10,812 bases of DNA from a virus. A program made the position numbers and the translations under genes. The notes under the pieces are model-generated. The model searched no databases, had not been told where the DNA came from, and was given only the letters and a program-made list of their open reading frames with translations. The stretch lies in the UHGV virus genome UHGV-0284389; one strand, written 5' to 3'. Shown piece after piece: positions 1 to 2,510 of the stretch (positions are counted from its first letter, which is position 1; the number at the start of each line of letters is the position of its first letter).

Positions 1-67
1 AGTTCTGGTCAACGACCAGTTGAGCGGATTCGCGTTTAAACTCTGCGCTGAAATTTCTTTTTTTCAT
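1..67 (-). CDS. IS3-family transposase OrfA (IS911 InsN-like), N-terminal fragment, 3' end outside window
   Basis: ATG at 67-65 (minus); translation [22 protein letters not shown] matches the remembered IS911 OrfA start; the reading frame runs off the window edge. Confidence 0.75.
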
Positions 68-139
68 TATGACACCTGTGTTGTTCTGAGGTGAGCATAT
101 CACCTCTGTTCAGGTGGCCAAATTCAGTAAACCACTTCA
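1..139 (-). mobile_element. IS911-like (IS3 family) insertion sequence, left end plus start of orfA; continues beyond window start
   Basis: Minus strand reads 5'-TGAAGTGGTTTACTGAATTTGGCCACC... from position 139, an IS3-family TG... terminus, followed by an ATG at 67-65 encoding [23 protein letters not shown] recognise this from memory as the IS911 OrfA N-terminus; not verified by search. Confidence 0.8.
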
Positions 140-1539
140 ATCAGGCTGTCGATGATGAATAACTGGATCCCGTATCGGCGGCGAGCGTAGTCGAATATTT
201 CGATCAGCCTGTCGGCTTTCGCCGTTCCGGTCAGGCCAAACACCCAAAGTCTTTCGTCATAAAATTTAAATGCAGAGTCAATTTCCAGCACTGGCGGCAT
301 CTTGCAGCACGTCGCCTGACGGGTAAGTCGCTTAAGGAGAATGCCTGGCTTCAGCTCAAGTGACGCGATGCACGTCTTCACACCCTGACGCATTGCCTCA
401 AGTGCCATATGCCCGACAACCTCCGTTTTTCCGTGACCGTTCACACCATTGACCAGCGTCAACTCGGCCTCACGGAACTGGAATTTATCTGCCAGAGATT
501 CCCACGGTGGATTAAACAGATACTGCTGCTTGCCGTAGAAAGCGTTGATAGTGTCCTGGTAAAACTCTCGCGCGCTGTAGAGTTCTTCAGGATCGAAGTA
601 GGATGCCGTGCCGATGTACTGCCAGATTTCATCCTCGGTAACACCGTTCATCAGGCATTCGTTGATGTCTTTGTACGGCAGAGTAACAAGACGGCAACGA
701 TGTTCACCGAGTCGGCTTGCGATTTCCCTTGCGGCTTCACGACCAACATCATCAACGTCCATCGAGATGAATATTTCCTCAAACCTGTCGAGATTGTGAT
801 ACTCAAACTCAATCCACTGCTGCTTAGCGCCTTTCCCGCCACCAAACGGCACGGATAACGCCGAGATGCCGTATTGCGCATAGCTCATACAATCAATTTC
901 GCCTTCGCAAAGTACAACCGCCCTCACGCCAGCGTCCAGAGCCTGCCATCCGAACAGACAAGGTTCGCAATCACCTTCTGCCATAATGACTTTCTTCCCG
1001 TCCGGGCGCTCAGTGCTGATTCGCTTGACCTGCAACAACTCACCATCGCGTTTGTACGGAAGCACCAGAGCATCCAGTTCTCGCTCTCCATTCCACACCT
1101 TGCCGCTGACAACCTCGTAGCGCTTTACGACTTCTGGCGATATGCCACGCGATTGCAGGTACTCAAGATGGGATTCTGTTCTGGTAACGTAGCGGGCGAT
1201 TTTCTTGCGATCAGGTCTGGAGAATTTCTTCTCACGTTTGGCATCGAAATGGTGATCGTCATCCTTGATACCGAGAAATGCTTTCGCTTCCTGCATAGCC
1301 TGATGCAGGTTAATTCCACGACATGCCATCCACAAATCAAGCATGTCACCGCCGTCTCCCTCAGCGAAATCAGCCCATTTTTTCTTGCCGCTAAGGTTGA
1401 CCTTAAGGCTGTTTCCCTTGTCACCGTTGACGTTACCGGCAACCCACTCATGCCCATCTTTCTTGCCGTTTGGCAACAGGTGCGGAGCCACCCTGTCAAC
1501 CTGCGCCCAAAGCAGGTCGCTAAGTTCACTTGGAGTCAT
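124..1539 (-). pseudogene. T7 gp4-like bifunctional DNA primase-helicase, C-terminally truncated by the IS911-like insertion
   Basis: 471-aa ORF. The central TOPRIM region (VVLCEGEIDCMSYAQYGISALSVPFGGG...MDVDDVGREAAREIA...LPYKDINECLMNG) aligns with the T7 gp4 primase core, and Walker A (GVNGHGKT) and Walker B (LFIIDSL) helicase motifs follow. The frame ends 4 codons after Walker B with residues EVVY-stop encoded by IS terminal sequence (junction at 139). Helicase motifs H3/H4 and the arginine finger are missing. RBS GAGG precedes the ATG at 1539. Confidence 0.8.
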
Positions 1540-1649: not shown

Positions 1650-2510
1650 TCACCTGTCGAAAAACACGTAGCCAGTTTTCGATACGGTGATTGCGGATGA
1701 TGGTTTGGATTGTGGTTGAATAGTTTCTGGCTTCTCGTCGTTCCAGCGTTGACCGTTCAGGTAGCTTGATGGTAACAACCTGTCGAATCCGAACTGCTTA
1801 CCATTCCTGCATGCGATGTCTTCTGCCAGCATCGTGGCAAACTCGCTTGCCGTACCCCTGGTAGTTTTACGCCATTCCCTGAACTGTGTTCTGAATGCCG
1901 AAGCTGCGTTTTTCTTCCCGGCTTTCCGCATGCCTGCACACCAGAATATTTCCTCGAATGCCTTGTCGGTTTCTTCGTGACGGTCAGATGATTTTTCACA
2001 CTCAGTCCGAACACTTTCGGACATAGTGTTTTTATTATTTCTTTTTTCTTTTGTAATAGTTTCTTTTGTGTGTCCCTGTTTTGGTGACAGCGCTGTCACC
2101 GTTTTGGTGACACTTTTTGTCACCAATGCAGTGACATTATCACCAGAGTAGTGACACCCTTCGATTTGCCATTCCTCGATGTTCTTGTTAGGCCCGATTT
2201 GCTGGCCTTCGCGAAGGATAACCTTCATCGCGATAAGCTCATTCTTGGCCTTGTTTACCTTCTGTCTTGGCAGCCTGGTAATTTGAGCTAACTGACTATC
2301 AGAGATGCGATCCATCTTTTTACCGTAGCCGTATGTTTTACGGCATATGGCGTGGGCAACCTTGCTCTGATTTTTCGTTAAATCTGCGCCGATAAGCTCT
2401 TCATACAGGGCATTTGCAAGACGGGTATAACCATCTTCAACTTCTGCCACACGACGCTCCACAGGCCGTTGTGAAGGCCTTAAATGTGTTACGGTTGCAA
2501 GATTACTCAT
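1650..2510 (-). CDS. phage replication initiator, lambda O-like (replisome organiser), with origin iterons embedded
   Basis: 286-aa ORF sitting between cII and the helicase gene, as O does in lambda. The N-terminal segment ([58 protein letters not shown]) resembles the O N-terminal DNA-binding domain; a repetitive VT-rich linker is encoded by the iterons; the C-terminal motif is [34 protein letters not shown] upstream. Confidence 0.7.
2028..2072. promoter_or_regulatory. AT-rich tract flanking the iterons (candidate DNA-unwinding element of ori)
   Basis: TTTTTATTATTTCTTTTTTCTTTTGTAATAGTTTCTTTTGTG lies immediately next to the iteron array inside the O-like gene. Confidence 0.5.
2083..2157. repeat. 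iteron array of a putative phage replication origin (inverted GGTGACA/TGTCACC half-sites at ~20-25 bp spacing)
   Basis: GGTGACA at 2083-2089 and 2106-2112; TGTCACC at 2094-2100 and 2118-2124; GTGACA at 2131-2136; ATCACC at 2139-2144; GTGACAC at 2151-2157. All lie inside the O-like coding region, as in lambda ori. Confidence 0.65.

Follow-up and report, generated by a model that had tools for sequence, protein, structure and literature searches.

Primase-helicases of the T7 gp4/Twinkle type (SF4/DnaB-like) combine a TOPRIM domain, a linker and a RecA-like helicase domain with the motifs H1, H1a, H2, H3 and H4, and the same architecture is found in the intact homologues of the phage protein described here. 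In SF4 helicases, as established by the biochemistry of T7 gp4 and DnaB, the NTP-binding site is located between subunits and requires the sensor in H3 as well as the arginine finger of the neighboring subunit, with H4 forming the central DNA-binding loop. The relevant orthologues from lambdoid and P22-like phages (Sf101, mEp043, ES18 gp61, epsilon34 gp52, SEN22, and Stx phages such as phi24B with its 'P' protein) are likewise encoded between an O-like gene and ninB, and in other prophages the intact gene is also followed by nin/Q genes, with ninB downstream. The insertion sequence IS911, in turn, is bounded by 36-bp inverted repeats, encodes orfA and orfB with a -1 frameshift and transposes via a circular intermediate in which the abutted ends are separated by 3-4 bp (PMC2909936).

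The stretch of DNA analyzed here (10,812 nt in total, hereafter the window) corresponds to one complete metagenome contig (ENA ERZ27264776 k141_19771), which sets the evidence base at one contig from one sample. The k141 format of the contig name presumably reflects assembly with MEGAHIT at a final k of 141. The genes on the contig make up the early region of a lambdoid/P22-like enterobacterial phage (Table 1). This region is mosaic, with matching segments that are 94-98% identical to isolated, functional phages such as Sf101, mEp043, HK633 and Sf6, and to many E. coli prophages. We consider it most likely (with a probability of roughly 0.85) that an IS911/ISEc52-type insertion sequence has integrated in the helicase half of the primase-helicase gene of this P22/lambda-like phage.

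Table 1. Features of the window discussed in the text. Positions are those of the window; L numbers denote the loci used for comparison.
Feature	Position	Strand	Remarks
Left end of IS3-family element, IS911/ISEc52 type	1..139	-	139/139 nt identical to K-12 IS911A (L006) and to the complete ISEc52 copy (L003), E = 2e-66
IS orfA, initial 22 codons	2..67	-	ATG at 67-65; identical to annotated ISEc52 and IS911A; called at L005 10746-10811
Terminal inverted repeat IRL, 36 bp, tip 5'-TGAAGTGG	104..139	-	Reads TGAAGTGGTTTACTGAATTTGGCCACCTGAACAGAG; identical in K-12 IS911A and ISEc52
IS-derived tail E468 V469 V470 Y471 and TGA stop	124..138	-	IRL sequence
Truncated primase-helicase ORF, 471 aa	124..1539	-	Residues 1-466 native, codon 467 hybrid, 468-471 from IS; PHROG 239
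IS/phage junction	139..140		139 is the final IS base, 140 the initial phage base; from the IS alignment and the intact site in L001
Predicted 3-bp target-site duplication, GAT on minus strand	140..142	-	Inferred; second copy beyond the contig; TTT/TTT precedent in L003
Walker B/motif H2, LFIIDSL, D464	142..162	-	Aligns with T7 gp4 VIILDHI, D424; last native motif
Walker A/motif H1, GVNGHGKT, K371	424..447	-	Aligns with T7 gp4 SGSGMGKS, K318
TOPRIM domain, residues 209-296	652..915	-	Pfam PF13155 Toprim_2, E = 7e-12; aligns with T7 gp4 primase (PDB 1nui, 1q57)
Lambda O-like replication initiator	1650..2510	-	Upstream partner gene, intact; PF04492 Phage_rep_O; PHROG 277 and 2365
Early-region genes			Ead/Ea22, DUF551, RecT, Gp157, N, S24-peptidase cI-like repressor, cro, cII, O-like initiator, primase-helicase

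The left end of the window, whose minus strand (positions 1-139) starts with TGAAGTGGTTTACTGAATTTGGCCACC..., agrees without any difference with the corresponding part of IS911 and ISEc52, including the TG tip, the 36-bp IRL and the start of orfA. It carries a 5'-TG...CA-3' terminal inverted repeat of about 36 bp, which matches those of known IS3-family members, and orfA, encoding an HTH regulator, starts about 70 nt inside the IRL, with 22 of its approximately 100 codons present and in the same orientation as the primase-helicase gene of the phage. Thousands of copies of this IS end are found in the chromosomes and plasmids of E. coli, Klebsiella, Shigella and other enterobacteria. The full ISEc52 copy used for comparison (L003) is 1,249 bp long, contains orfA and orfB and is annotated by PGAP as 'IS3-like element ISEc52 family transposase (programmed frameshift)'; its right end corresponds to inverted TGAAGTGGTCAACAAAAACTGGCCACC, and it is flanked by TTT on either side, representing a 3-bp duplication. 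This full copy, whose end is identical, also includes the orfAB transposase with its DDE catalytic domain, a part of the element that would lie past the end of the contig here. The window holds 11% of such an element, a part on which IS911 proper, ISEc52 and a chimera of both are indistinguishable. When three IS copies were aligned, their flanks (CTGAT, AGTTT and AGGGA) differed right up to TGAAGTGG. The copies thus diverge exactly at the T of TGAAGTGG, which identifies position 139 as the true tip of the element. The first-pass annotation had placed an IS911-like, IS3-family terminus at this position, and the identity of the end to K-12 IS911A and ISEc52 bears this out; a native phage origin of the terminus is contradicted by the exact IS tip, at which phage homology stops.

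Alignment with intact homologues pinned the break to codon 467 of a 626-aa gene. The closest intact gene, from E. coli K56-43-un, shows 98.9% nucleotide identity and encodes a 626-aa protein that is identical to the window ORF at 464 of 468 aligned residues (BLASTP), with homology ceasing at ...QLFIIDSL. Chance does not account for the match. The sequence at this point is CCTGATGAAATGTGGCATAGG in intact phages and CCTGAT/TGAAGTGGTTTAC in the window, where the slash marks the junction; the uninterrupted target site has the sequence CCTGATGAAATGTGG. Across the junction, the minus strand runs ...ATC GAC AGC CTG AT/T GAA GTG GTT TAC TGA ATTTGGCCACC..., such that codon 467 (window 141-139) is changed from ATG to ATT and Met to Ile, with AT contributed by the phage and T by the IS. 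Native sequence ends at residue 466, two residues past the Walker B aspartate, in agreement with an initial placement of the truncation just after Walker B, and the codon count also substantiates the claim that the last four codons and the stop are derived from the IS repeat. Residues 467-626 are missing from the window ORF. The C-terminal loss predicted at the outset is therefore real, but with 160 residues it is slightly larger than the 100-150 aa then estimated. The ORF keeps a good ribosome-binding site.

The most straightforward route to this arrangement would be the integration of an IS911/ISEc52 circle by copy-out-paste-in transposition, with an insertion point between codon positions 2 and 3 of Met467. 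A simple insertion of this kind would leave a 3-bp GAT duplication, and its far end, ...CCACTTCA/GATGAAATGTGG..., would restore an ATG-initiated ORF of 160 aa. The predicted far-end sequence comprises the IS right end, the GAT duplication and the rest of the gene (...GACCACTTCA/GATGAAATGTGGCATAGG..., also written ...TTGTTGACCACTTCA/GATGAAATGTGGCATAGG...).

At the protein level, the window ORF matches the DNA primase/helicase profile PHROG 239 with E = 2.8e-133, covering profile positions 11-479 only; the intact protein matches this profile too. Pfam domains Toprim_2, AAA_25 and DnaB_C (the latter slightly under its gathering score) are detected in the intact protein, and Toprim_2 alone in the window protein. 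The best matches among solved structures, which span residues about 165-539 of the intact homologue, are those of T7 gp4 (5ikn, 6n7i and 1q57, E about 1e-23), and the human Twinkle structures 8e2l (E = 6.5e-14) and 7t8b match as well. In the intact homologue, the H3 motif VTH(S)RK is aligned to gp4 H465, the H4 region of gp4 aligns with KGSGAITDLTDNLFIIWRN, and the arginine finger lies in LEKQRNGEG (KQRNG motif). We take LEKQRNGEG, which is located beyond the printed alignment, to be the DnaB-type KQRNG arginine finger and thus the counterpart of gp4 R522 and the corresponding residue of E. coli DnaB. H3, H4 and the arginine finger all fall within residues 467-626, so that they are present in the intact homologue and absent from the window ORF, as the first-pass annotation had anticipated. 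Unlike T7 gp4, the window copy ends after H2, and it very probably represents a truncated, non-functional member of the T7 gp4/Twinkle-type family, as judged from its sequence.

A further difference to T7 gp4 concerns the N-terminal region. Whereas gp4 possesses a Cys4 zinc-binding domain, the first 100 residues of the window protein (window 1240-1539) contain a single Cys, so that a Cys4 zinc site like that of T7 gp4 is lacking. The N-terminal domain retains the spacing G..W.DF..G.GGD..DL of the primase zinc-ribbon region, and the PDB matches begin at about residue 165-190. Putative primase activity is an annotation only, for the intact family as well, a situation similar to that of metazoan Twinkle.

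Without the γ-phosphate sensor His of H3, without H4 and without the trans-acting arginine finger, we infer that the truncated protein would not give rise to an NTP-hydrolysing, translocating hexamer. Based on the biochemistry of T7 gp4 and DnaB, which provides strong grounds for this assessment, the helicase is very probably dead, in line with the initial view that it is very likely non-functional. Apart from the primase-helicase, the O-like initiator is the sole replication protein of the module. Its gene contains four palindromic iterons of 19-20 nt (TGTCACC-N5-GGTGACA type, window 2071-2156) spaced 20-24 nt apart, which are adjoined by a T-rich tract (2030-2070). Window 2030-2156 is a lambda-style origin inside the initiator gene, as typical of lambdoid replication modules, so that a lambda O-type initiator with in-gene iterons takes the place of the T7-style origins of the T7 system. 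We found neither a lambda-P-type loader for host DnaB in the window nor an alternative helicase or loader beside the O-like initiator. The phage is thus probably unable to replicate its DNA unless complemented, for instance by another prophage in the same cell. Moreover, the 1.25-kb IS would come to lie between the pR operon and the downstream nin/Q genes, on which it may have a polar effect, while early rightward (pR) transcription would run into orfA, which has the same orientation.

Among the 134 homologues collected, 113 comprise 624-629 aa, and in these full-length proteins the last 158-161 residues are highly conserved, with VTHSRK, KGSGAITDLTDNLFIIWRN and LEKQRNGEG being near-invariant. 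A full 626-aa gene is present in the isolated plaque-forming phages Sf101, mEp043, APC_JM3.2, ES18, epsilon34, SEN22 and vB_SosS_Oslo, at 94-99.8% identity. Orthologues are thus 626 aa long, or 968 aa if they contain an intein (Stx/O157 phages), compared with 466 native residues in the window copy. None of the shorter entries examined (436-589 aa) combines an endpoint at residue 466 with a native stop codon. Four of them (P0093, P0125, P0131 and P0133) are fragments from contig ends in which the native sequence carries on, three (P0002, P0014 and P0117) terminate in short unrelated tails, and two (P0006 and P0038) are fused to long unrelated sequence. With the short forms examined being fragments, frameshifts and fusions, homologues do not naturally end at this position.

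Several side observations emerged from this survey. The 968-aa orthologue of E. coli O157:H7 Xuzhou21 (L002 2523-5429) has the same form as those of Stx2 phages, and the O157/Stx intein, with roughly 340 aa and Hint and LAGLIDADG homing-endonuclease domains (residues about 379-634), is located just past the Walker A region. Furthermore, there are N-terminal fragments with ends at residues 464-472 (P0093, P0125 and P0133) and C-terminal fragments 158-228 aa in length (P0135 and P0137-P0149); in many independent draft assemblies (E. coli, Salmonella and Citrobacter), the gene is broken no more than about 20 codons away from the truncation point. These clustered fragments are not due to the IS, because they continue in native sequence, and a mosaic or repeat boundary among co-resident prophages possibly lies behind the assembly breaks.

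The end of the contig itself can be explained by the assembly process. Positions 1-140 of the window are 100% identical to other IS copies, with 139 bases belonging to the IS and one flanking base being shared by chance. These 140 nt equal k-1, and the contig thus ends where a unitig of a k = 141 de Bruijn graph must end, given an IS that occurs in multiple contexts. The contig end is an assembly effect that carries no biological information, and since the contig stops within the repeat, it shows neither the far IS end nor the target duplication nor the 3' piece of the gene. In general, an IS at the end of a metagenome contig says nothing about the sequence beyond it and is not a sign of prophage domestication. 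Searches for the junctions gave a uniform result. When window 1-330 was compared by megablast with 5,426 complete E. coli genomes, no locus covering the left junction was returned; exact left-junction patterns were absent from GTDB representative genomes and JGI metagenomes, and the same two collections lacked the predicted right junction (IS right end + GAT + GAAATGTGGCA). The predicted 160-aa 3' product MKCGIG...TEY exactly matches P0135, which is found on 12 contigs (NCBI, JGI, Logan and ENA), not demonstrably from ERZ27264776, and a homology search with this product returned a 209-aa cluster representative as its sole hit.

Since the evidence comes from one contig and one sample, since the complete E. 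coli genomes lack the left junction and the remaining collections searched lack both, and since metagenome assemblies yield chimeras at repeats, it is conceivable that the assembler joined a phage contig to a non-adjacent IS end. Nevertheless, we regard such an artefact as very unlikely. Chimeras in assembly graphs form within shared sequence, whereas phage and IS share only a gapped resemblance of 8-10 nt, far shorter than k = 141. The join coincides with the terminal nucleotide of the IS, as do the ends of true transposition products, and the contig runs k-1 nt into the repeat, as expected of a true read-through junction. Both the need for reads to span the junction and the position of the join exactly at the IS tip argue that it is real. 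A less improbable alternative, albeit one that we still consider unlikely, is that the IS edges a deletion or rearrangement in which the 3' helicase segment, and perhaps the nin/Q and late genes, have been lost, leaving an IS-bounded prophage remnant. The contig provides no information past the IS, decayed alleles are known from complete genomes such as that of E. coli FORC_082, and an IS3-family element is present in the early region of YZ3-11, all of which would fit this scenario. On the other hand, the other 10.6 kb of the contig are free of decay, and the exact 160-aa product, which a gene caller would be expected to report next to a simple insertion with a GAT duplication, has been called separately on 12 contigs, albeit not demonstrably in ERZ27264776. 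As a deletion of this kind would be a sub-variant of IS integration into the helicase half, the truncation of the gene holds either way.

It is also possible to ask whether the 471-aa form is put to use. T7 gp4 N-terminal fragments keep primase activity in vitro, and the ribosome-binding site and intact TOPRIM domain of the window ORF would be compatible with a natural or selected short isoform of primase-only or regulatory function. This notion appears extremely unlikely, though, given that no homologue naturally ends at residue 466, that the stop codon is provided by foreign IS DNA and that the exact protein is limited to one contig. There is a similarly slim, if marginally better, prospect that selection has kept the truncated protein because it poisons the helicase hexamers of related phages in a dominant-negative manner, or because the lesion locks the prophage in the chromosome. 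If true, the dominant-negative subunit would mediate superinfection exclusion at the level of replication against related incoming phages. On this improbable reading, with pR transcription entering the co-oriented orfA, induction of the prophage would also be linked to transposition of the IS.

The insertion of an IS911/ISEc52-type element into the primase-helicase gene remains our preferred reading. What it does not sustain is the further claim of the first-pass annotation that the locus marks a defective, domesticated prophage: chromosomal integration, loss of the 3' segment and other decay are all without evidence, and the gene array is intact but for a single lesion, with the ORFs of the other 10.6 kb being dense and lacking signs of decay. 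The term 'domesticated' would mean that the prophage had been retained and selected over a long time, and with no evidence of this the claim is unsupported, even though a dead helicase alone would make the phage replication-defective. The absence of the junctions from the collections searched instead points to an insertion that is recent and private, and not to domestication over a long time. The lesion looks like a recent IS hop that is probably neutral or mildly deleterious. In this respect, it resembles the prophage genes of E. coli and Shigella that have been disrupted by an IS moving in from a chromosome or plasmid, although the window junction differs in that it was not found in the other collections searched. 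Nothing about the IS family, the gene family or the phenomenon is new, and the locus exemplifies damage of a kind that is routine in phages or prophages rather than a new system; its biological weight is small, as it adds another IS that knocks out an essential phage gene.

Other genomes show different kinds of damage in the same region. In E. coli FORC_082 (L008 2026-3234), the same gene is a pseudogene without its N-terminus, and O, cII, cro and cI (the immunity region) are deleted. E. coli YZ3-11 (L007 8232-9459) carries a frameshifted IS3-family transposase upstream of RecT, between early-left genes.

IS911 has a 'targeted' insertion pathway beside IR-like sequences (PMC9333248), and the sequence TGAAATGTGG beside the insertion point resembles the IS tip TGAAGTGG; in addition, a stretch of 30 nt that resembles IRR is located some 30-60 nt downstream. 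Of the shuffled targets, 9% reached the best local alignment score, and the IR-like stretch does not adjoin the tip. We therefore attribute these similarities to chance and rejected IR-targeted insertion as an explanation. The resemblance of TGAAATGTGG to TGAAGTGG does account for the fact that megablast matches to intact genes seem to start at 133-136 and not at 140.

Finally, the 471-aa IS-chimeric protein (P0001), found on one contig only, serves as the representative of a 260-member cluster at 90% identity in a large protein collection; most of the proteins grouped under it are fragments of the intact family that stop at contig ends. In this collection, fragments of the primase-helicase family are thus represented by a broken sequence, part of which is encoded by an IS.
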